Source: Bacteroidales bacterium
GTDB lineage: Bacteria; Bacteroidota; Bacteroidia; Bacteroidales; UBA7960
Reading direction: 5' to 3'
Assembly: GCA_003560165.1 (NCBI GenBank)
Contig: PWJC01000070.1
Location: 594 to 64,593 of the forward strand
Length of the DNA stretch: 64,000 nucleotides
This document shows positions 21,382 to 41,036 of the stretch, one piece after another (positions within the stretch are counted from its first letter, which is position 1; each line of letters opens with the position of its first letter). The position numbers and the translations under genes are program-made. The notes beneath the pieces were generated by a model. It was given only the letters and a program-made list of their open reading frames with translations. It was not told the DNA's origin and did not search any database.

Positions 21382-21634
21382 ATTTTCACCGATTGCCCTG
21401 CAGCGCAGGACAAGAATCCGCATCCGTGGGAACGGCGTGAAAATCAAGGCCAGTTGATTTTTTTAATCAACAAAATCAGGGCCTTTATAAACCCACTCTG
21501 GTTTTTCGTGGGGAAAACATCACCAAACCCGGCTCCGTCATCCAGCCTGACAGAACGGCACCCCGCCCGGTAAAGGACAAAACTTGTATCTTTACGCATT
21601 TTGCGAATTATTTAAAAAATAAACAGCTACCGCA

Positions 21635-22867
21635 ATGAGGGCATTTTCTTCATCAACCTTGATCACTGCATTTATTGGTTTTCTCTTTCCTTTCTCCTGT
21701 GCCACACCCGATGAGCGGCTGCAACAGAAAGCCGCGGCCATCCACGCCGAAATACTCACCCTCGACAGCCATGTGGATACACCCCTGATGCTCACCCGGG
21801 AGGATTTCGATATCGGACAGCGCAACGATCCCAACGAGGGAGGGGGCAAGCTCGACTTTCCGAGAATGGAAGAAGGGGGGCTTGATGCTGCCTTTTTCGC
21901 CGTTTACCTGGCACAGGGACCCTTGACCACAGAAGCATACCAGCAGGCACACGAGAGGGCCCTTGACATATTCGGGCTCATCCGCCAGGCAGTGGATGCC
22001 TACCCCGACATGGCCGGACTGGCGCTGACATCCGAAGACGCATATCGCCTGCGCGAAGAGGGTCGCCGCGCCATTTACATCGGCAATGAGAACGGCCACC
22101 CCATCGGCAAAGACCTGGGCAGGTTGCAAACCTATTATGACCTGGGCAGCAGGTACATGGGCCTGTCGCATTCACGAAACAATCAGCTGTGCGATGCCTC
22201 CACCGATGCGTCCGGCCCCCTTCACCACGGATTGTCAGATTTTGGGGTTGAGGTGGTCAGGGAACTGAACCGTTTGGGCATGATGGTCGATGTGAACCAT
22301 ATTTCCGATGAGGCCTTCTATGATGTGCTTGAGGTGACCAGGGCACCCGTCATTGCCTCCCACTCGAATGTCAGGGCCATCTGCGACCACCCCCGCAACC
22401 TGAGCGACGAAATGATCCTTGCCCTTGCAGAAAATGGCGGAGTGCTTCAGCTTTGCGTACTGAGCGCCTACGTCAGGGAAATGGAGCCGGATCCCGAAAG
22501 AGAGGCCGCCTTTGACGCCCTCAGGGAAAAATGGGACCATTTTCAGAATCTGACCGACGAGGAAATGGCGCAGGTCAGGAGAGAATGGGATGCACTGAGC
22601 CGAAAATACCCCCGCCCCCTGGCTACGGTGGCCGAACTGGTAGATCACATAGACCACATAGTGGAGCTGGCAGGAATTGACTACGTAGGCATCGGCACCG
22701 ATTTCGACGGCGGGGGCGCCCTGAAAGACTGCTACGATGTTTCCGAATTGGGCAACATCACCCTTGAGCTGATCAGACGTGGATACACGAAGGAAGAGAT
22801 CGAAAAGATCTGGTCCGGGAATTTCATGAGGGTGTTCAGGGAAGTGGAAAGGAAGAAAGAAAACTAA
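21635..22867 (+). CDS. Membrane dipeptidase (peptidase family M19)
   Basis: Lipoprotein-like signal ending in FSC, DSHVDTP, DVNHISDEAFYDV, ASHSNVRAICDHPRNLSDE, GIGTDFDG. Confidence 0.85.
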   Translation: MRAFSSSTLITAFIGFLFPFSCATPDERLQQKAAAIHAEILTLDSHVDTPLMLTREDFDIGQRNDPNEGGGKLDFPRMEEGGLDAAFFAVYLAQGPLTTEAYQQAHERALDIFGLIRQAVDAYPDMAGLALTSEDAYRLREEGRRAIYIGNENGHPIGKDLGRLQTYYDLGSRYMGLSHSRNNQLCDASTDASGPLHHGLSDFGVEVVRELNRLGMMVDVNHISDEAFYDVLEVTRAPVIASHSNVRAICDHPRNLSDEMILALAENGGVLQLCVLSAYVREMEPDPEREAAFDALREKWDHFQNLTDEEMAQVRREWDALSRKYPRPLATVAELVDHIDHIVELAGIDYVGIGTDFDGGGALKDCYDVSELGNITLELIRRGYTKEEIEKIWSGNFMRVFREVERKKEN

Positions 22868-22872
22868 GCCGC

Positions 22873-23754
22873 TTACTTTTCGATGCGGAGGAAGAGATTG
22901 ACCCCCAGGGGCTCGCTGATCACATCACTGAAGCTTTCAGGAATGCCTGCTTGCCGGGCAAAAGCCAGCAACTCTTCGGCCGATCGGTGGTAAAGGAACC
23001 AGTCGGCCAGTACTTCCATGATCTTGCGCGAGGGGCTGTTGTTGCTGAAATTGCCGATGACCATTTGCCCCCCACCGGCCAGGAAGGCATAATAATGCTT
23101 GAGCAGGTACACAAAGTGCTTGTCTTTGAAATAGTCGAACAGGCCTGCGCTCCAGATCAGGTCGTATTGCTTGTCGGGAACATAGCGGATCACATTCCTG
23201 TTGTGGAAGCTCAGGTACTCCAGGAAGTCCCTGTTTTTGTCAGTGGCATAGGCAATGGCGCGGCTGTCCATATCGATCAGGTCGAAATACAGCCGGTTTT
23301 CGCTCGTGGAGCAAAGGTACTCATAAACCTCCGTAACGGGTCCGCTGCCCAGTATCAGCACATTCCTGGCCTGCCCGCCGGCATTTTCATTCAGGCAGTG
23401 CAACAATTCAACGGCAATCTTCTTGCGGTTCACCACGGCGATGGTGGCAGGCAAACGATGGAAAAACAAATCCCATTTCTTCCATTTCGGATCGGGGCTC
23501 ACGTAGTTCTGGTACATTTTTTCAATAATGAAAAAATCACCGCTGTAACCAAAGGGTTTGTTAAAGGCAAATCCGATGTTGGTGGCCGGGTGGAGCATCG
23601 GTTTCATCGCCTCACGGTAATCATCGATCTGTTCGGGTTTGATCTGATCAACCATCTGGTGCATGAGCTCAAAATCCTCCGGGTCGGGGCCGTTTTTATC
23701 AAACAGCATTTGTGCAAACGCCTTGAGTGATGTTTCTTCTGCCAGTGTTTTCAT
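22873..23754 (-). CDS. Class I SAM-dependent methyltransferase with N-terminal extension (possible PhcB-like signal synthase)
   Basis: SAM motif I VLILGSGPVTEVYE, acidic post-I DLIDMD, motif region DLIWSAGLFDY. About 130-aa N-terminal extension containing KPFGYSGDFFIIEKMY. Last gene of the two-component operon. Confidence 0.7.
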   Translation of the reverse strand: MKTLAEETSLKAFAQMLFDKNGPDPEDFELMHQMVDQIKPEQIDDYREAMKPMLHPATNIGFAFNKPFGYSGDFFIIEKMYQNYVSPDPKWKKWDLFFHRLPATIAVVNRKKIAVELLHCLNENAGGQARNVLILGSGPVTEVYEYLCSTSENRLYFDLIDMDSRAIAYATDKNRDFLEYLSFHNRNVIRYVPDKQYDLIWSAGLFDYFKDKHFVYLLKHYYAFLAGGGQMVIGNFSNNSPSRKIMEVLADWFLYHRSAEELLAFARQAGIPESFSDVISEPLGVNLFLRIEK

Positions 23755-23787
23755 GTTATCAAATGGGGTAACGCATGTTGACCAAAG

Positions 23788-24540
23788 CTATTTATTCAGC
23801 ATCGCTTCGAGCAGATCACGATATTCCTCATCTACGGTGATGACCGTCATCTTATCGGCCATGATCAGTTCGGGGTATTTGGCAATAAACACCTTATCGA
23901 GATTGATGATATACTGGCTGCTCACCTGCACAAAGGTATCTTCGGGAAGTTTCTTTTCCACTTCGTCGAGGTTGCCCTGCACCAGCAGGCTGTCTTCGCG
24001 AAGATGTATCCTGCAGTGGTTGTCGCCTTGCTCCACATAATAGACATTGGGAAGGTTGATACGCTCCAGCCCTTTCTCCCCTTCGAGGAATACCTGGTTT
24101 TTGGCCGGGGCGCTCGGCTTGAAAAAGGTATTGTACTGGTCGCTCTCCATCCGGGTCTGGATGTCGTTCTCGAATTTGTACCTGGCAATCTCGATATTGG
24201 TTTGCAGGTCCTTTTCGGAGAACGGCTTGATAATATACCCATAGGGAAGAGATATTTTAGCCTTTTCGATGGTGGCCACATCGGCGTTTGCCGTGAGGAA
24301 GATAACGGGCACATCATGTTGTTTCCCGATGATGGTTGCTGCATCGATGCCTGTCATGTCGCCTTTCAGGATGATGTCCATCAGTATCAGGTCGGGAAGT
24401 TTCCTTTCCACCTCATCAATGGCGTCCTGGCCCGAAGCCACTGTCTTTTGCACATCATAACCCAGGCTCATCAGGCTTTCCTCGATATCGGCAGCCACCA
24501 GGAATTCGTCCTCTACAACCAGAATGCTCAGCTTGTCCAT
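23788..24540 (-). CDS. LytR/AlgR-family response regulator (REC + LytTR DNA-binding domain)
   Basis: REC: ILVVEDE...LILMDIIL...TANAD. LytTR: NHCRIHLREDSLLVQGNLDEVEKKLPEDTFVQVSSQYIINLDKV. Confidence 0.85.
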   Translation of the reverse strand: MDKLSILVVEDEFLVAADIEESLMSLGYDVQKTVASGQDAIDEVERKLPDLILMDIILKGDMTGIDAATIIGKQHDVPVIFLTANADVATIEKAKISLPYGYIIKPFSEKDLQTNIEIARYKFENDIQTRMESDQYNTFFKPSAPAKNQVFLEGEKGLERINLPNVYYVEQGDNHCRIHLREDSLLVQGNLDEVEKKLPEDTFVQVSSQYIINLDKVFIAKYPELIMADKMTVITVDEEYRDLLEAMLNK

Positions 24541-24551
24541 GTTTTTGAAAG

Positions 24552-25610
24552 TTAAATTTTAAAATAGATGTCGTACTTGGTACCCTCTGAAAAATCGTAT
24601 TCGAGTTTGCCGTCGATCTGCTGCACCAGCTTGTGCACGATGCGCATGCCCAACGACCTGGAATCTTCCACATTGAATGAATTGTCCATGCCCACCCCGT
24701 TGTCAGACACCCTCAGGGTAAACTCCTTTTTCCCGTGCCGGATCAGGCTGATTTTTATAAGGCCTCCGTTGGCATGAGAAAATGCATGCTTAAACGAATT
24801 GGATATGAGCTCGTTAATAATCAGTCCACAAGGGATGCCCGTATCCAGGGGGAGGAAGACATCCTCCACATCGTATTCAAAACGCACATTGCGCTGCTGG
24901 TCATGATAGGTGCGGGCCAGGTTTCCGGCCAGGCTTTTTACGTAATTGGAAAACTGTATATTGGCCAGGTTCTCATTCTGGTAAAGATTCTCATGGATCA
25001 ATGCCATGGAGCGGATGCGGTTCCGGCTTTCGGCAAGCACGGTGCGCAGTTTCTGATCGTCCACAAGGCGTTCCTGCATGGTGAGGATGCTGGAGATGAT
25101 CTGCATATTGTTCTTCACCCGGTGGTGCACTTCCTTGAGCAGCACCTCCTTTTCGTCCAGCGACCTTTTCAGGTTTTTTTCGGCCACCCGCCTTCTGATC
25201 TCTTTTTCGGCCAATGCCTTTTTCAGCAAAATATTCCCGGCCAGCTCATCGATCAGGGCATAGAGCTTGATCGGGTCGACCGGCTTGATCAAGTATCCGT
25301 TCACCCCCAGGTTGATGGCCTCCAGAAAGTATTCCTTGATGCTGTAGGCCGACATGACGATCACCTGCACATCGGCAGTTAGTTGCTTGATCTGCCTGAT
25401 CATTTCCAGGCCGTTCATGATGGGCATGCTGATGTCTGTGATGATCAGGTCGGGGGTGTGTTTTTGATAGATGTCGAGCCCTTCCTGACCGTTCTCTGCG
25501 ATGAAAAAAGTGGAGGTACGCCTCCTGAGCCTTTTCTCATACAAGCCACGGATGGTCTCGTTATCTTCGACGAACATCATGGAGATCTGGTGGGGAAGCT
25601 GGGTTTCCAT
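24552..25610 (-). CDS. Receiver-histidine kinase fusion (REC + HisKA_2 + HATPase_c)
   Basis: REC: MMFVEDN...LIITDISMP. HisKA_2 H-box KEVHHRVKNNMQIISSIL. N-box LIINELISNSFKHAF. G-box VSDNGVGM. Confidence 0.8.
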   Translation of the reverse strand: METQLPHQISMMFVEDNETIRGLYEKRLRRRTSTFFIAENGQEGLDIYQKHTPDLIITDISMPIMNGLEMIRQIKQLTADVQVIVMSAYSIKEYFLEAINLGVNGYLIKPVDPIKLYALIDELAGNILLKKALAEKEIRRRVAEKNLKRSLDEKEVLLKEVHHRVKNNMQIISSILTMQERLVDDQKLRTVLAESRNRIRSMALIHENLYQNENLANIQFSNYVKSLAGNLARTYHDQQRNVRFEYDVEDVFLPLDTGIPCGLIINELISNSFKHAFSHANGGLIKISLIRHGKKEFTLRVSDNGVGMDNSFNVEDSRSLGMRIVHKLVQQIDGKLEYDFSEGTKYDIYFKI

Positions 25611-25652
25611 AATCCTGGGTTTTATTCCGGCAGTGTCGGCTTACAATATACG

Positions 25653-27518
25653 TTAAATATAGGTGGCAATGATGTTGATAAAATCTTCCAGGTTAAACGG
25701 CTTGGGGATGTAGTCGTCGCATCCCGCATTGCGGCTTTTGTCGCGGTCGCCATCCATGGCATAGGAAGTCTGGGCGATGATGGGGAGCCCGGGCTGCAGT
25801 TCCTTGATCTGCCGGGTGGCTTCGTACCCATCCAATACCGGCATGCGCACATCCATCAGGATCAGGTCGACATGGGTGCCTATCCTGATCTGGTCGACCG
25901 CTTCCTGCCCGTTTTTGGCCCAGATCAGGTTGGCACCGGTTTTCTTCAGTGCTGTTTTGATCAGCAAAAAGTTCGTCGTGACATCCTCTGCCACAAGGAT
26001 CACTTTGTCACTCCAGTTTAAGTCCATATGGGAAGCATTTACGATGTAATTCCGAAAAATGGATTCTGTGCCTCTATGCAGGGGCAGGGTGAAGGTAAAT
26101 ATGGAGCCTTCGCCGGGGGTGCTTTCAAGCCAGATATCGCCTCCGAACAATTTGACAAAGGCCTTGGAAATAGCCAGCCCCAGACCGGTGCCTTCGTATT
26201 TGGGCTGATGGTCGACCGTGGCCTGCATGAAGCGGTCGAAAACCACCTCCTGCTGGTCTTCGTCCATGCCCACCCCGGTATCCTTTACATAAAACAACAG
26301 TTCTTTTTCGTGGATGGAATATCCGATCTCCACCAGCCCCCTGTTGGTAAACTTGATTGCATTGCTCAGCAGGTTGATAAACACCTGCTTGAGGCGGGTG
26401 CGATCGGACAGGATCACATCATCGGCCCCATTCAAACTGTACCTGACCTTGAGTTCAACGCGACCGTCCTGAATTTTGTTGTTATTGCGGAAGAGTTTGC
26501 ACACCTCGTCGATCAACTCATTGATGGAGAATTCGCTTTCGTTGATGGTGAGCATGCCGGCCTCGATCTTCGAGAGGTCGATGATGTCACCAATGAGCGT
26601 CAGCAGGTGGTTGCCGTTTTTATTGATGATCTCTACGTATTCTTTCAGTTCTTCATCGCTCTCGGCCTCCAGCAGCAATTGCGAGAACCCAAGTATCCCA
26701 TTCATCGGAGTCCTGATCTCATGGCTCATATTGGCCAAAAAGGCCGACTTCAGCTTGTCCGATTGCTCAGCCCTTTCCTTGGCTTCCTCAAGCTGGGAGG
26801 TGCGCTGTTTTACTTTATTTTCGAGAGTGAAGTTGGCTTCTTCCAGCTGGGCCTTGCGTTCATCGAGCTGGCTGTTCAGAAAAAAATCGCGGCGGGCAAA
26901 ATACTCGATATTATAAGCGGCGAACATCCCGATGACATTGGCGGCAACAAAGAAAAAGTTGTTGTTGATGATGAGTTCGGGCGGGGCACCGGAAAAGGCA
27001 ATGGCGCCAACATTGTACAGAATAAGAATGAACCATCCGCCAATGGTGGCGATCAGAAACCTCAGCTTGATAAAGAAATAGCCGGCAAAGAACACCAGCA
27101 TGAGCCCGCCGTAGTAGGCATAGTTCTCGGGCACCACCATCAGCATCACGCTGATGCCGGTACCCCCCAGAACGAAGGAGAGAAAAACCAGGGGCTGCCA
27201 TACCTTGGAAAAAAAGGGGAAAAATGACAGCAAAAAGGTAGCGGCGATAAATGGGATCACGATCCCGAAGCGAATGATGGTAAACAAATGCGTCAGCTCG
27301 GGCACCACAATGCTGTCGAGCAGGCCAAACACCCCATAGAGCAAACCCACCAGGAAAAAGGACACCCTGAATTGCGGCAGCGAATCGCGGTAGTATTTTT
27401 TCAGGAATGACTTTTCGCGCTCATCCCTGAATGCCAGGGTTAAGGGGTTGAGGTTCATTCGCCTGATGCCACCGGGTAATTCGTTGAATAAAGTGGTCGA
27501 TGAGTTATTCGTTGGCAT
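25653..27518 (-). CDS. Hybrid sensor histidine kinase (polytopic membrane sensor, coiled coil, HisKA, HATPase_c, C-terminal REC)
   Basis: About 6 TM N-terminal domain, H-box [37 protein letters not shown], receiver ILVAEDV...[13 protein letters not shown]. Confidence 0.85.
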
Positions 27519-27547
27519 GACAATAAGTCCTTGGTAGGATATCCACG

Positions 27548-27555
27548 CAAATTTA
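27548..27555 (-). promoter_or_regulatory. Candidate Bacteroidota -7 promoter box (TAnnTTTG)
   Basis: Minus-strand TAAATTTG, 30 nt upstream of the hybrid kinase ATG at 27518. Confidence 0.35.
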
Positions 27556-27663
27556 ATGTTTTTCCTTAACCACAGCCATTTAATCTGATGAAATTAACCG
27601 GTTATGGGGTTTTTTGAGGCAATAATCAATGTGGCCGGGTTGTCGGTCAAGGCCGAATTTTAT

Positions 27664-27671
27664 TACCTTTG
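27664..27671 (+). promoter_or_regulatory. Candidate Bacteroidota -7 promoter box (TAnnTTTG)
   Basis: TACCTTTG, 29 nt upstream of the pnuC ATG at 27700. Confidence 0.35.
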
Positions 27672-27699
27672 CGCGTTTAAAAACCCTAAACCCCTCCCC

Positions 27700-28368
27700 A
27701 TGATGCTGGCCAACTCTTTCCTGCAGCTTTTTTATGAAAACGTGATGGAAACTACCTGGCTGGAGCTGATTGCAGTGACTTTCGGCATTATGAGCGTCTG
27801 GTTCGCCAAACAGGCCAATCTCCTGGTTTACCCCACGGGGATTGTCAGCACAATCATTTATATCTATATCTGTTTCAACATCCAGCTATACGCCGACATG
27901 GGCATTAATCTCTTTTATACCAGCATGAGCGTATACGGCTGGTACGCCTGGACACGCAGAGACCATTTGAAAAGAGTCAGGCCCATCCGCTGGAATACCC
28001 GAAGGGAACAGCTTACCGGCATTGCCCTCATCCCGTTCCTGTATGTAGTCATACTGGGCCTGATTTACCTGTTCAAGCAGGACGATACCGAATACATGAA
28101 TTCCTATATCCCTTATGTAGACTCCTTCACCACCTCTGTTTTTCTGATCGCCATGTGGTATATGGCGCATAAAAAAATTGAGAACTGGATCTACTGGACG
28201 GTGGCCAACATCATATCCATTCCGTTGTATTTTGTAAAAGGCCTGGTGTTTACAAGTTTTCAGTTTTCCGTCTTCCTGGTTCTGGCCATATTGGGCTTGT
28301 TGGAATGGATCAGATTATACAACCAGGGCAGGGCAAGGGAACAAAAATTCATTGATGACCTGATCTGA
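27700..28368 (+). CDS. pnuC: Nicotinamide riboside transporter PnuC family
   Basis: WLELIAVTFGIMSVWFAKQANLLVYPTGIVS and later W-rich TM pattern typical of PnuC. ATG 27700 lies 29 nt after a TACCTTTG box, so the track start at 27604 is rejected. Confidence 0.75.
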   Translation: MMLANSFLQLFYENVMETTWLELIAVTFGIMSVWFAKQANLLVYPTGIVSTIIYIYICFNIQLYADMGINLFYTSMSVYGWYAWTRRDHLKRVRPIRWNTRREQLTGIALIPFLYVVILGLIYLFKQDDTEYMNSYIPYVDSFTTSVFLIAMWYMAHKKIENWIYWTVANIISIPLYFVKGLVFTSFQFSVFLVLAILGLLEWIRLYNQGRAREQKFIDDLI

Positions 28369-28939: not shown

Positions 28940-29002
28940 TTCTTATCCATTTATGTCCCGCAGGCAGCGCGGCAGGGAAAACCAGGGAAAACGTAAAAAC
29001 AG

Positions 29003-29125
29003 GTTTAAGAGTTTAAAAGTTTAAAAGTTTAAGTATTTAATAATCAACTCTTAACCACTTCAACTCTTCAACTTTCCTCTTCCTACCTACTACCTACTAC
29101 CTACTACTTACTACCTTCTGCCTCC
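29003..29125. repeat. Composite tandem-repeat mosaic (GTTTAAAA-type octamers, TTCAACTC units, CTACCTA heptamers)
   Basis: GTTTAAGA GTTTAAAA GTTTAAAA GTTTAAGT (29003-29034), TTCAACTC TTCAACTT (29059-29074), 3 perfect plus 3 variant CTACCTA units (29083-29124). Lies between the ctc terminator and the pth start. Confidence 0.9.
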
Positions 29126-29142
29126 TGGTGCCACAATGCATT

Positions 29143-31132: not shown

Positions 31133-31216
31133 GCCCGGGTGGCGGAATTGGTAGACGCGTTGGTCTCAAACACCAATGATAGCAATATCGTGCCGGTTCG
31201 ATCCCGGCCCCGGGTA
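31133..31216 (+). tRNA. tRNA-Leu (anticodon CAA), no encoded CCA
   Basis: Manual fold: acceptor GCCCGGG/CCCGGGT (G1-U72 wobble), D-arm GCGG-AATTGGTAGA-CGC, anticodon stem TTGGT/ACCAA with loop CTCAAAC, long variable arm, T-arm GCCGG-TTCGATC-CCGGC, discriminator A. Confidence 0.85.
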
Positions 31217-38680: not shown

Positions 38681-40297
38681 ATGAAAAAAAGGCTGATCAT
38701 ACTGGTGGTGGCGGCCATCACACTTTCGCTGCTCGGACTGCTGGGCATTCAGTTGTATTGGATCCGCAATGCCGTGGCCGTTAAAGAGATCAACTTTGAG
38801 CGGGGGGTAAGCGAGGCGGCCTCAAGGGCCATTTACAAATTCAACAAACAGGAGCTGGCCAGAAAAATGGTCGAGCAGCAAAACCGCAATCATCATCTGA
38901 AGCAGTTGAACCAGATGATCGATTCGCTGAACCGTTTTTACTACGATCAGATCTTTTCCAGACACTCCGAACAACTTCCTCAGGATGAGGCAGGCCAAAA
39001 CATCTTCTGGCAGGAGTTCGGTTTTCGGTTCGGCGAACAAAGAAATCCTGAGCAGGAGCCGGACACGCACGACACCAGCCTGGTAACCACCAACGGCATG
39101 GTCCCCGACCACAGCAGCGGTTACCTGCCCAGCCCCGATCCCGGCCTCGCTAACGATCCGTACACCACCTTTTACGAAAGGAGCCGGATCATCAACGACC
39201 TGTTCGAGGACTTGTTCTCCAACCGCTATACCTTCCAGGTATCCGACCAACGGAGCATTTCATCGCTTGACTCCCTGCTGTCTGGCGAGTTGCTCGCACA
39301 GGGGATCAACACTCCTTATGAATTCGGCGTATACAATCCGGTACATCACGTCCTGGTCGGGGAAAAAACAGGGCAGCACACCCAGGAGCTTCTCCAGAGC
39401 CAGTATGCCTTCCATTTGTTCCCAAACGAAATTTTCCAGAACCACGAATACCTTCTGCTGCATTTCCCGAGACAGGACAGGTATATCCTTTCGCAGATGA
39501 ACACCATGCTGGGGGCCTCCCTGATCCTGATCATGATCATCATCTCTTCCTTTGCCATCACCATCCTTACCGTGATCAGGCAAAAAAAGCTTTCGGTGAT
39601 GAAGAACGATTTTATCAACAACATGACCCACGAGCTGAAAACGCCGATTTCCACCATCTCTCTGGCCTGCCAGGCACTTCGCGACCAGGACATCAACAAG
39701 TCGGAAACCCTCTATGAAAGTTACATCAATGTGATCAATGAAGAAAACGAACGGTTGGGGCTTTTAACGGAAAAAGTATTGCAAACCGCCCTGATAGAAA
39801 AGGCCAGAATAAAACTCAACTTCAGCGGGATCAACCTACATGAACTCATTGAGGATGCCATTCAGAAGATCGGGCTGCAGGTGGGCGCCAAACAAGGCCG
39901 CATCACCACCGATCTGCGCGCAGCACACCCAACTGTTATGGCCGATAAGGTCCACCTGATCAATGTGTTCTCGAACCTGCTTGACAATGCCAACAAATAT
40001 TCACCCTACCAGCCCGAAATCAGGGTCAGTACCGAAAACAGCAGCAATGGGGTGACCGTGCACTTCGAAGACAAGGGAATTGGCATCAGCCGCAGCAATC
40101 AAAAGAAAATTTTTGATAACTTGTACAGGGTTTCCACAGGAAATATTCACGATGTGAAAGGTTTCGGCCTTGGCCTGAGTTACGTGAAAGCCATTGTCGA
40201 AAAACATGGGGGGCATATTTCCCTGGAAAGCGAACCAACTAAAGGATCCCGTTTCAGCGTATTCATTCCTTTCGGTCACAACGGGCATGAAGGCTGA
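38681..40297 (+). CDS. Sensor histidine kinase (membrane-anchored, HisKA + HATPase_c, RprX/PhoR-like)
   Basis: N-terminal TM, second TM around residue 280, H-box NNMTHELKTPISTISL, N-box LLDNANKYS, G-boxes EDKGIGI and GFGLGLSYV. Confidence 0.8.
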   Translation: MKKRLIILVVAAITLSLLGLLGIQLYWIRNAVAVKEINFERGVSEAASRAIYKFNKQELARKMVEQQNRNHHLKQLNQMIDSLNRFYYDQIFSRHSEQLPQDEAGQNIFWQEFGFRFGEQRNPEQEPDTHDTSLVTTNGMVPDHSSGYLPSPDPGLANDPYTTFYERSRIINDLFEDLFSNRYTFQVSDQRSISSLDSLLSGELLAQGINTPYEFGVYNPVHHVLVGEKTGQHTQELLQSQYAFHLFPNEIFQNHEYLLLHFPRQDRYILSQMNTMLGASLILIMIIISSFAITILTVIRQKKLSVMKNDFINNMTHELKTPISTISLACQALRDQDINKSETLYESYINVINEENERLGLLTEKVLQTALIEKARIKLNFSGINLHELIEDAIQKIGLQVGAKQGRITTDLRAAHPTVMADKVHLINVFSNLLDNANKYSPYQPEIRVSTENSSNGVTVHFEDKGIGISRSNQKKIFDNLYRVSTGNIHDVKGFGLGLSYVKAIVEKHGGHISLESEPTKGSRFSVFIPFGHNGHEG

Positions 40298-40322
40298 GGC
40301 CACACACCAACAACCCGAAAAC

Positions 40323-41036
40323 ATGGAACAGCCGAAAATCAGGATTCTGCTTGCCGAAGATGATCCCAACCTGGGCACCATACTGAAAGCATACCTCGAG
40401 GCCAAAGGCTATCCTACCACCCTTTGCACCGACGGCCAGAAAGCCCACGAAGCCTTTTTACGCGAGAATTACACTTTTTGTGTGCTGGACGTGATGATGC
40501 CGGTCAAGGACGGTTTTAGCCTGGCCAGGGACATCCGGAAGATCGACAAAAAAGTCCCCATTTTGTTCCTTACGGCCAAGAACATGCAGGAAGACATCCT
40601 GGAAGGTCTCAAGATCGGGGCAGACGATTACCTGACCAAGCCTTTCGCCATGGAGGAACTGCTGCTGAGGATCAATGCGATCTACCGCCGTACTTATTCA
40701 GAAAAACCCCTGGAGTCGGGAAAATCCTTTTTTCACCTTGGCAGATACACCTTCGATTACACCCGGCAGATTCTGAAAATCAAAGATAAGGAGCAGAAAT
40801 TGACCTCCAAGGAGGCCCAACTGCTCAAAATGTTGTGCGACAGGGTCGGCGATGTGCTGGATAGGTCCGAAGCCCTGAACAAGATATGGTTCGACGACAA
40901 TTACTTCAATGCCCGGAGCATGGACGTGTACATTGCCAAGCTGCGAAAATACCTGAAAGACGACCCCGACGTCGAATTGCTCAATGTGCACGGCATAGGC
41001 TTTAAATTGATTGTGCCCGGCGAAAATACCGGCTGA
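40323..41036 (+). CDS. OmpR/PhoB-type response regulator (RprY-like)
   Basis: MEQPKIRILLAEDDPNLG, phospho-acceptor VLDVMMP, winged-helix C-terminus (LTSKEAQLLKML...HGIGFKL). Alternative ATG at 40287 overlaps the kinase stop. Confidence 0.8.
   Translation: MEQPKIRILLAEDDPNLGTILKAYLEAKGYPTTLCTDGQKAHEAFLRENYTFCVLDVMMPVKDGFSLARDIRKIDKKVPILFLTAKNMQEDILEGLKIGADDYLTKPFAMEELLLRINAIYRRTYSEKPLESGKSFFHLGRYTFDYTRQILKIKDKEQKLTSKEAQLLKMLCDRVGDVLDRSEALNKIWFDDNYFNARSMDVYIAKLRKYLKDDPDVELLNVHGIGFKLIVPGENTG

Follow-up and report, generated by a model that had tools for sequence, protein, structure and literature searches.

The operon discussed here lies on the minus strand of a 64,000-nucleotide stretch of DNA (the window) from a soda-lake Bacteroidales bacterium, and comprises four genes in the list of open reading frames of that window. 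The locus contains the following features:

27604-28368, plus strand: NMN transporter, upstream neighbour, divergent from the operon
27548-27555, minus strand: TAAATTTG box, candidate Bacteroidetes-type -7 promoter element (read from the sequence)
25653-27518, minus strand: hybrid sensor histidine kinase, 621 aa (open reading frame and Pfam)
26874-27458, minus strand: membrane sensor domain of the hybrid kinase, residues ~21-215 (hydropathy and profile comparison)
24552-25610, minus strand: soluble receiver-kinase fusion, 352 aa (open reading frame and Pfam)
23788-24540, minus strand: receiver-LytTR response regulator, 250 aa (open reading frame and Pfam)
22873-23754, minus strand: PhcB-family SAM-dependent methyltransferase, 293 aa, candidate signal synthase (open reading frame and homology to PhcB)
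21635-22867, plus strand: M19 dipeptidase, downstream neighbour, convergent with the operon

The coordinates leave spacers of 42, 11 and 33 nt down the operon; as the downstream neighbour is convergent and the upstream one divergent, the four genes form a self-contained unit. Two starts are uncertain: homologues of the kinase suggest a possible Met21 (27458), and Met16 was chosen by a gene caller for the methyltransferase. The four reading frames, coordinates, domains and gaps described in an initial annotation of this DNA were all reproduced from the open reading frame list and Pfam, and the box it had noticed before the first gene is indeed present, 29 nt ahead of the kinase ATG (27518). This box fits the pattern TAnnTTTG, the -7 promoter consensus of Bacteroidetes. 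Taken by itself the match says little, as the 40 occurrences observed in the window vs 27 expected are a mild enrichment; yet in many related loci a box of this kind also stands ahead of the kinase orthologue.

The operon is present in an in situ transcript assembly, a sediment metatranscriptome whose contigs cover 21629-26889 and 27105-27527, the first of them bridging all three intergenic gaps; these contigs are strandless and one also takes in the convergent neighbour gene. Metatranscriptome depth is uneven across the locus while DNA depth is flat, and no RNA contig covers the intergenic positions 27528-27645, the nearest stopping at 27527. Comparison of related loci revealed no conserved LytTR repeat upstream of the operon, and so lends no support to autoregulation.

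A kinship of the methyltransferase with PhcB, suspected in the initial annotation, is borne out by direct comparison with PhcB of Cupriavidus: BLASTP aligns the two at E 9e-21 with ~26% identity, and in a profile-profile comparison (hhalign) residues 38-292 match PhcB 187-461 over 252 columns with a probability of 99.7% and E 2.5e-25, the N-terminal ~185 residues of PhcB being absent from the window protein. The segment KPFGYSGDFFIIEK, which the initial annotation had likened to PhcB-like enzymes, has its counterpart in PhcB as KPLGYAGDYEMVNQ. The KPFGYSGDF motif, common to the PhcB family, is found in the window protein, and the shared motifs exceed those of a generic SAM fold: TKP(F/L)GYxGD, AGLFDYxxDK, NPxxxxME and a C-terminal GxN(L/V)F. 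In the window protein KPFGYSGD starts at residue 66, the SAM motif LGSGP at 136 and AGLFDY at 203. Pfam gives weak class I methyltransferase matches at residues ~150-240 only, and it is for this reason that the first ~125 residues appear as an "extension" in Pfam terms. These alignments establish homology to the PhcB family along nearly the entire methyltransferase, as a member of the family rather than as a demonstrated orthologue of PhcB; its close homologues bear in IMG the name "EF 3-hydroxypalmitic acid methyl ester biosynthesis protein". With the Bacteroidales methyltransferase profile, PhcB scores 89-102 bits and the subfamilies linked to desaturases, AraC, KAS III and ACAD reach 195-272 bits; since these outscore PhcB, the substrate may differ from that of PhcB. 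The AlphaFold model (pLDDT 85) finds its best Foldseek matches, among the 50 listed, in small-molecule natural-product methyltransferases, and no solved structure matches the protein outside the methyltransferase core.

The wider PhcB-like superfamily comprises 4767 representatives at E <= 0.001, built on a unit of ~280 residues—a helical cap and a Rossmann core, with KPxGYxGD and AGLFDY. Fusions to KAS III, acyl-CoA dehydrogenase plus ACP, PilZ, AraC and also polyketide enzymes are found in this family, and fatty-acid desaturases and a FeeM N-acyl amino acid synthase are among the genes next to its members. These fusions and neighbours point to acyl substrates and to signalling.

In the hybrid kinase, a hydrophobic N-terminus of ~235 residues is followed in Pfam by HisKA (257-321), HATPase_c (372-481) and Response_reg (507-617). 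Both phospho-acceptors, His and Asp, are in place, in an H-box (SHEIRTP, from residue 265) and a receiver motif (DVRMP, from residue 556). By hydropathy the sensor has some six hydrophobic helices joined by short loops; polar or charged positions inside the helices are conserved, and the invariant residues of the sensor are D53, R68, Q93, Y120, G123, R138, E190 and R194 (alignment numbering). When 72 Bacteroidales sensors were compared by hhalign with 11 PhcS N-termini, the profiles matched over 142 columns with a probability of 94.6%, E 6.8e-8 and a score of 55.5; the controls (one reversed, 20 block-shuffled and two unrelated membrane sensors) did not exceed a score of 27.5 and a probability of 12%. 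This comparison, a step further than the initial annotation had gone, indicates homology between the membrane domain of the kinase and MASE8 of PhcS. Precomputed Pfam hits place MASE8 on orthologous kinases as well as on PhcS of Cupriavidus and Ralstonia, and all homologues of the PhcS N-terminus carry it, a Ralstonia pseudosolanacearum kinase among them. Our local Pfam scan reported MASE8 neither for the window kinase nor for Cupriavidus PhcS, and weakly (E 0.0044) for a Paraburkholderia PhcS-like kinase; the MASE8 label is thus based on the precomputed hits and on the profile comparison made here. Hybrid kinases normally need an Hpt protein; none is encoded in the four-gene cassette.

The 352-aa protein combines Response_reg, HisKA_2 and HATPase_c in Pfam, with a receiver motif DISMP from residue 59 and an H-box HHRVKNN from residue 162. 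Its alignment with Cupriavidus PhcR is full-length but weak (E 5e-9, 20% identity, 352 vs 381 aa), so that by domain order and size it appears analogous to PhcR, without support for orthology. The 250-aa regulator has Response_reg at 6-116, with the motif DIIL from residue 55, and LytTR at 158-242. Any BLASTP similarity to Cupriavidus PhcQ is confined to the receiver domain, and we rejected the assignment of this gene as PhcQ on account of its LytTR output and receiver-only similarity. It probably serves as the module's output to transcription.

The conservation of the cassette, which the initial annotation had put forward for checking, holds in every related genome locus with enough contig. 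Of 84 Bacteroidales genome loci, 75 have the methyltransferase next to a kinase of this sensor type and the other 9 are cut by contig ends; thus all 75 evaluable loci are paired. Among the carriers are the cultivable genera Draconibacterium, Maribellus and Mariniphaga. The pairing is kept across three gene arrangements: kinase, receiver-kinase, LytTR regulator and methyltransferase; a PAS-hybrid kinase followed by the methyltransferase; and, in a sister Bacteroidales clade, methyltransferase, kinase, receiver and PAS-kinase, which has the phcB-phcS order. Seen from the sensor, the association is looser: roughly a third to a half of these sensors lack a methyltransferase in the vicinity. Among 80 metagenome loci with the sensor domain, the methyltransferase is adjacent in 21, clearly lacking in 12 and missing on the downstream side in 9. 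The sensor proteins without a methyltransferase are classic kinases, hybrid kinases and a PAS-GGDEF protein.

In the Phc system the signal made by PhcB and perceived by PhcS is methyl 3-hydroxymyristate or 3-hydroxypalmitate (PMC8578825). Because the methyltransferase and the sensor are genuinely related to these two proteins, the operon probably encodes a self-made lipid-signal circuit. We would give a probability of roughly 0.55, by analogy with Phc, to a Phc-type autoinducer module that makes and senses a lipophilic methyl ester and whose output has been rewired. The cytoplasmic methyltransferase would methylate a carboxylic acid of fatty-acid origin, giving a methyl ester able to cross membranes; after PhcB, the substrate would be a 3-hydroxy fatty acid, perhaps a 3-hydroxy iso-branched acid, in which the Bacteroidota are rich. 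The ester would enter membranes and bind within the six-helix MASE8-type sensor, altering the kinase/phosphatase balance. From the hybrid kinase, phosphoryl groups could then go to the soluble receiver-HisKA_2 kinase, at its receiver, and to the receiver-LytTR regulator either directly or by way of this second kinase; the regulator would alter transcription. As the synthase shares the operon, a positive feedback loop is possible, and the response might depend on cell density. Such a self-made lipid-signal circuit is of a kind without prior description in Bacteroidota; we found no literature on a Phc-type module of this sort in the phylum.

The same genes could serve membrane-lipid homeostasis, the sensor reading the state or a constituent of the cell's own membrane and the cascade governing the methyltransferase as a lipid- or fatty-acid-modifying effector with no diffusible signal, in the manner of DesK-DesR and its desaturase. 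The many close sensor-domain proteins without a nearby methyltransferase are what one would expect if the cue came from the membrane in general, fatty-acid desaturases are frequent neighbours of relatives of the methyltransferase, and the last position in the operon is a possible place for a regulated effector. We nevertheless consider this unlikely: the only characterised relatives of the two proteins, PhcB and PhcS, act as producer and receptor of a signal (PMC8578825), the methyltransferase accompanies the sensor in 75/75 evaluable loci whichever of the three arrangements is used, its soluble natural-product-type fold is no obvious bulk-lipid modifier, and the AraC and PilZ fusions of the family are typical of signalling.

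Lone sensors would also fit the detection of an external compound, for example a toxic free fatty acid or another exogenous lipophilic acid released by neighbours or present in the surroundings; the operon would then step up the methyltransferase, which would esterify and so detoxify the acid. Carboxyl methylation does remove the charge of a fatty acid, and the co-transcription of sensor and enzyme is a trait shared with many inducible detoxification systems. However, a phosphorelay of three proteins with a LytTR regulator is a good deal of machinery for one enzyme, efflux and degradation genes are absent from the cassette, and in the PhcB/PhcS precedent it is the ester that is made and sensed, not the acid (PMC8578825); this reading is rather improbable. 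The tight linkage of the enzyme to signalling proteins might also mean that it methylates the kinase or the regulator, adapting the signalling as CheR does when it methylates chemoreceptor glutamates. Some distant family members show weak matches to the CheR SAM domain (E 1e-4 to 3e-5) and one plasmid homologue is annotated "CheR"; but the window methyltransferase has no CheR match in Pfam or NCBIfam and none among the 50 listed Foldseek matches, dominated by small-molecule methyltransferases, and on these grounds a CheR-type protein methyltransferase was rejected. The family is moreover fused to fatty-acid and polyketide enzymes and to acyl carrier protein, and the product of PhcB is a small molecule (PMC8578825), which makes protein methylation very improbable.

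Our preferred reading, a module that makes and senses a methyl ester, can be set beside three groups of known systems. The other subfamilies of the PhcB-like superfamily share with the window the common unit, the KPxGYxGD and AGLFDY motifs and recurrent ties to regulators and fatty-acid enzymes. Most of them differ in having no adjoining MASE8-type kinase, their partners being AraC regulators, desaturases, KAS III, ACAD/ACP or membrane GGDEF-EAL proteins; we found no characterised member among them.

In AgrCA, ComDE and FsrCA of the Firmicutes, a polytopic membrane kinase acts on a receiver-LytTR regulator and both are encoded beside a signal-making gene, so that the window resembles them in bringing together these three elements. 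At the opposite, their signals are peptides processed through AgrB/AgrD-type genes where the window has a SAM methyltransferase, they use HPK10-type kinases, whose sensors are unrelated, where the window kinase is HisKA, and the window module has an extra receiver-kinase tier. The four open reading frames and their neighbours include no AgrB/AgrD-like gene. Peptide quorum sensing of the Agr/Com type was therefore rejected, the LytTR regulator being the sole shared part and the kinase being HisKA, not HPK10.

[quoted passage not shown] Both here and there one operon holds synthase and receptor, a PhcB-family methyltransferase and a MASE8-type sensor kinase, together with a receiver-kinase of the size and domain order of PhcR and, as the fourth gene, one for a receiver protein. 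The likeness to phcBSRQ advanced in the initial annotation thus stands for PhcB and PhcS, by homology, and for the architecture of the receiver-kinase; it fails for the phospho-acceptor domain of the latter, HisKA_2 in the window and HisKA in PhcR, and for PhcQ, which has no DNA-binding domain (PMC8578825) whereas the fourth window protein has a LytTR one. Besides, the window kinase ends in a receiver domain that PhcS lacks, which makes it a hybrid, the gene order is the reverse of phcBSRQ with the synthase last, and the phylum is Bacteroidota instead of the Betaproteobacteria of Phc. A PhcA-type LysR partner was not identified here, yet the 64-kb window is uninformative on this point because phcA is unlinked to the phc operon in Ralstonia (PMC8578825); the obvious candidate for the output of the module is the in-operon LytTR regulator rather than PhcA.

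The ORF listing agrees exactly with the initial annotation on four minus-strand genes separated by gaps of 42, 11 and 33 nt, and the box proposed shortly upstream of the first of them is present as well:

25653-27518, minus strand: hybrid sensor kinase, 621 aa; Pfam HisKA, HATPase_c and Response_reg behind a hydrophobic N-terminus; H-box SHEIRTP and receiver motif DVRMP intact
24552-25610, minus strand: receiver-kinase, 352 aa; Pfam Response_reg, HisKA_2 and HATPase_c; motifs DISMP and HHRVKNN both intact
23788-24540, minus strand: LytTR regulator, 250 aa; Pfam Response_reg and LytTR; receiver motif DIIL intact
22873-23754, minus strand: methyltransferase, 293 aa; Pfam class I methyltransferase, sub-threshold only, over residues ~150-240; motif LGSGP intact
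27548-27555, minus strand: promoter-type box TAAATTTG, 29 nt ahead of the kinase ATG; matches TAnnTTTG

The operon is flanked by a convergent M19 dipeptidase gene and a divergent NMN transporter gene, so that it forms a self-contained unit. TAnnTTTG is the Bacteroidetes -7 consensus, and many related loci likewise have such a box ahead of their kinase gene; a search for conserved LytTR-type direct repeats upstream of the operon in ~45 loci gave this box only. Scans for sigma-70 promoters and intrinsic terminators gave near-chance counts, with no convincing site at the operon ends, and Rfam returned nothing near the operon but one tRNA (31133-31216). None of the four proteins has a model of its own in NCBIfam; the names of the top matches there (TorS, LuxQ and BarA; PhyK; BioC) were rejected, these matches lying far under the cut-offs. 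The window carries a second hybrid histidine kinase (39578-40664, plus strand), ~27-31% identical in its kinase and receiver parts; the membrane sensor domain finds no match in it.

Of the 31-letter words sampled from the operon, 97-99% are present in several soda-lake, salt-lake and alkali-sediment metagenomes (2012, 2019, 2022), and this recurrence from 2012 to 2022 indicates a stable, recurrent population. The operon region is also found in one sediment metatranscriptome, in which one contig (21629-26889) crosses all three intergenic gaps and a second covers 27105-27527, no contig extending over the intergenic 27528-27645. RNA depth is uneven where that of DNA is flat. A single transcript with its start close to the box would agree with these data, the contigs being without strand and the first of them running also over the convergent neighbour. 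Two local irregularities were seen besides. Short tandem repeats (gtagtaggta..., aaacttttaaactttt...) at 28950-29130, between the peptidyl-tRNA hydrolase and L25 genes, show jumps of word depth in metagenome and metatranscriptome (DNA up to ~18000) with many loose ends; such simple repeats are evidently also present in short contigs from elsewhere. In three DNA runs of one study, an in-frame skip of 159 bases (53 codons) occurs at 26193-26353, in the ATPase domain of the kinase, at a depth of 9-20x versus 61-68x. Its shorter side measures 21 letters, with a single contig in each run; the probable cause is a chimeric short contig, a minor deletion allele of the kinase being the less likely alternative.

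Close homologues of the methyltransferase fall into more than 1100 clusters, and all those named by organism are Bacteroidota, Bacteroidales in the main. Many bear the IMG label [quoted passage not shown], which is the KEGG definition of phcB. Conservation is strong over all 293 residues (alignment A1), including the N-terminal part regarded initially as an extension. The exhaustive profile search (4767 representatives at E <= 0.001, 464 at E <= 1e-30) gave matches that nearly all cover profile positions ~10-292, so that Rossmann core and helical N-terminus together make up one evolutionary unit. Against the PDB, the single sequence and the profile both found the generic methyltransferase core only and no functional lead.

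As PhcB references we used a Paraburkholderia plasmid copy and a Cupriavidus chromosomal locus, Ralstonia PhcB not being in the plasmid collection. The Paraburkholderia graminis plasmid locus, found by tblastn, encodes a 468-aa methyltransferase, a 445-aa kinase, then two receiver proteins; homologues of this methyltransferase are ~463-aa proteins of Cupriavidus, Massilia, Janthinobacterium and Paraburkholderia. The Cupriavidus locus runs from a methyltransferase to a MASE8-HisKA-HATPase kinase, a receiver-HisKA-HATPase protein and a receiver-only protein, and is phcB, phcS, phcR, phcQ. The genome of Cupriavidus necator JMP134 is reported to contain a complete Phc system, 56-75% identical to that of Ralstonia (PMC2842291).

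The resemblance to PhcB proposed by the initial annotation holds up in direct comparison: Cupriavidus PhcB aligns with the window methyltransferase at E 9e-21 and 26% identity, and in profile-profile comparison the probability is 99.7% (E 2.5e-25), residues 38-292 facing 187-461 of PhcB. The very segment singled out as PhcB-like, FNKPFGYSGDFFIIEKMY, pairs with FTKPLGYAGDYEMVNQIL in PhcB. The first ~185 residues of PhcB, on the other hand, are without counterpart in the window protein. Seen from the PhcB profile, Bacteroidales methyltransferases are the top non-PhcB matches in the panel (94-112 bits; 80 for that of the window). Seen from the Bacteroidales profile, PhcB scores 89-102 bits, well below several uncharacterised subfamilies at 195-272 bits. 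By these alignments the window methyltransferase is a member of the PhcB family, though not necessarily an orthologue of PhcB.

The N-terminal membrane domain of the kinase offers a further connection to Phc. Precomputed Pfam assignments place MASE8 on orthologous kinases of related contigs, on Cupriavidus PhcS and on a Ralstonia pseudosolanacearum fragment; at E <= 1e-5 these include the kinases of two related loci (L001 and L002) and Cupriavidus PhcS, a third related locus (L003) being marked weak. In our local Pfam hmmscan, neither the window kinase nor Cupriavidus PhcS showed MASE8 at E <= 1, and the PhcS-like kinase of Paraburkholderia reached only E 0.0044. This mismatch, noted for 25653-27518 of the window and for L088 8421-9752, probably arises from filtering of transmembrane sequence or from a difference of version. 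Since MASE8 was not reproduced locally, the link between sensor and PhcS was tested directly by profile-profile comparison. With hhalign, 72 Bacteroidales N-termini against 11 of PhcS gave a probability of 94.6% (E 6.8e-8) over 142 colinear columns, spanning residues 49-192 of the window kinase and 36-181 of PhcS. The score was 55.5; two unrelated membrane sensors, the alignment reversed and 20 versions of it shuffled in helix-sized blocks served as controls and gave 27.5 at most. About six hydrophobic helices, joined by very short loops, make up the domain, and the polar residues D53, R68, Q93, R138, E190 and R194 (numbering of the sensor alignment, A2) are invariant in or beside them, a pattern that would be expected for an intramembrane ligand site.

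The wider PhcB-like family is a large uncharacterised superfamily with a flavour of lipid signals. Fusion partners among its members are KAS III (on either side of the methyltransferase), acyl-CoA dehydrogenase with an acyl carrier domain, PilZ and AraC DNA-binding domains (proteins P0187, P0232, P0203, P0264, P0177 and P0208). Their neighbours include fatty-acid desaturases, in three independent cases, the N-acyl amino acid synthase FeeM (loci L091, L093 and L095 for desaturases and FeeM) and AraC regulators. The AlphaFold model of the window methyltransferase (pLDDT 85) has as its top fold match 3ocj, an uncharacterised "possible exported protein" of Bordetella parapertussis (TM-score 0.63 to the model), which may be a solved member of the superfamily overlooked by sequence searches. 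Natural-product small-molecule methyltransferases follow, e.g. PhzM, SgvM, DnrK, CurJ and NodS. On three Rhizobium/Roseateles plasmids, a ~345-aa relative is divergent from a gene for a ~665-aa membrane GGDEF-EAL protein (L089 1634-3631, L092 1471-3468, L086 4595-6598). The ~215-residue N-terminus of the latter aligns colinearly but weakly with the sensor in hhalign (probability 34% with the Bacteroidales profile, 12.5% with PhcS), so that a common sensor is only suggestive.

At least 560 stretches of species-representative genomes contain relatives of the methyltransferase. The best 80 of them are all from metagenome-assembled genomes labelled Bacteroidota, from soda-lake sediments and other environmental sources, and the labels are mostly of Bacteroidales: Lentimicrobiaceae, Prolixibacteraceae (Draconibacterium, Maribellus), Rikenellaceae and Bacteroides sp., with a few "Sphingobacteriia". 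The cassette, whose conservation had been proposed as a check, is kept with its four genes in identical order in every locus that has a methyltransferase identity of at least ~55% and enough contig. Two distant clades maintain the pairing of methyltransferase and sensor with the remaining genes rewired: in one the methyltransferase is immediately preceded by a sensor-PAS-hybrid kinase; the other begins with the methyltransferase, followed by hybrid kinase, single receiver and PAS kinase, which is the phcB-phcS order. Altogether 75 of 84 loci have the sensor domain beside the methyltransferase, and contig ends cut the 9 remaining ones. In the reverse direction, metagenome contigs were searched with the sensor alignment: of 80 loci, the methyltransferase is present in 21, clearly missing from 12 and missing downstream in 9, and 38 are not judgeable. 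Thus the methyltransferase implies the sensor, and the sensor does not imply the methyltransferase. The lone sensors are carried by classic kinases, which is PhcS's own architecture, by hybrid kinases and by one PAS-GGDEF protein; six of them (L139 6007-7395, L107 216-1604, L120 5944-7386, L125 5974-7809, L127 5947-7845 and L170 6001-7647) are 44-58% identical to the window sensor, with no methyltransferase within several kb.

We give a probability of roughly 55% to the operon being a Phc-type module that makes and senses a lipophilic methyl ester. The methyltransferase would produce the ester and the MASE8-type sensor would bind it within the membrane, two steps supported by analogy with PhcB and PhcS, whose functions are established (PMC8578825). 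Phosphoryl groups would then pass through the receiver-kinase to the LytTR regulator; the order of phosphotransfer is inferred, and so are any autoinduction and the Hpt step that is missing.

Other functions have to be weighed against this one. The fusions, neighbours and fold of the family indicate that the substrate is small and derived from fatty acids, and that the roles lie in signalling. CheR is absent among the 50 fold matches listed for the model, the CheR-like reading was rejected on family membership, and we regard protein methylation of that kind as highly improbable. The lone sensors suit "solo" receptors and fit equally the sensor of a more general membrane cue. That the operon works as a membrane-lipid homeostasis loop seems unlikely to us, and we would be rather surprised if it served to sense and neutralise an external acid.

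The Phc-type reading can be carried further, although we hold this extension to be doubtful: the PhcB-family methyltransferase and the MASE8 sensor might form an old cross-phylum pair of autoinducer synthase and receptor, the Bacteroidales signal being a 3-hydroxy fatty acid methyl ester, possibly of an iso-branched acid, and dedicated to quorum sensing. Its users would be environmental Lentimicrobiaceae, Prolixibacteraceae, Rikenellaceae-like lineages and others. Little is understood of how Bacteroidota signal from cell to cell; to our knowledge, classical acyl-homoserine-lactone synthases are largely absent from them, and the Phc system has been studied almost solely as the virulence switch of Ralstonia and its Burkholderiaceae relatives. 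If true, the extended reading would give Bacteroidota their first defined native autoinducer system. The lone sensor kinases and the PAS-GGDEF protein would be "solo" receptors eavesdropping on the ester, and c-di-GMP would be tied to the same chemistry through the Rhizobium/Roseateles GGDEF-EAL proteins beside related methyltransferases. Homology of two core Phc components to a conserved, transcribed Bacteroidota cassette leads to a concrete prediction, namely that the autoinducer is a methyl ester, its receptor intramembrane and the regulon under LytTR control, which the cultivable genera Draconibacterium, Maribellus and Mariniphaga make testable. For MASE8 the prediction supplies a candidate class of ligands, and it suggests that lipid-derived signals stem from the large uncharacterised superfamily of PhcB-like methyltransferases.

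In our full-text literature searches no paper connected Bacteroidetes with PhcB or Phc-like systems, and MASE8 was barely mentioned; the automated IMG names already hint at the link between this methyltransferase and Phc. An Agr-like reading was rejected on membership. As for the phcBSRQ logic put forward by the initial annotation, it stands in part: a PhcB-family synthase and a PhcS-type MASE8 kinase occur in one operon, as in the Phc system and at the level of families, whereas the receiver-kinase resembles PhcR in architecture only and the fourth protein does not have the PhcQ feature. Judged from its sequence, the window module would be Phc-like in its core rather than an orthologue of phcBSRQ.
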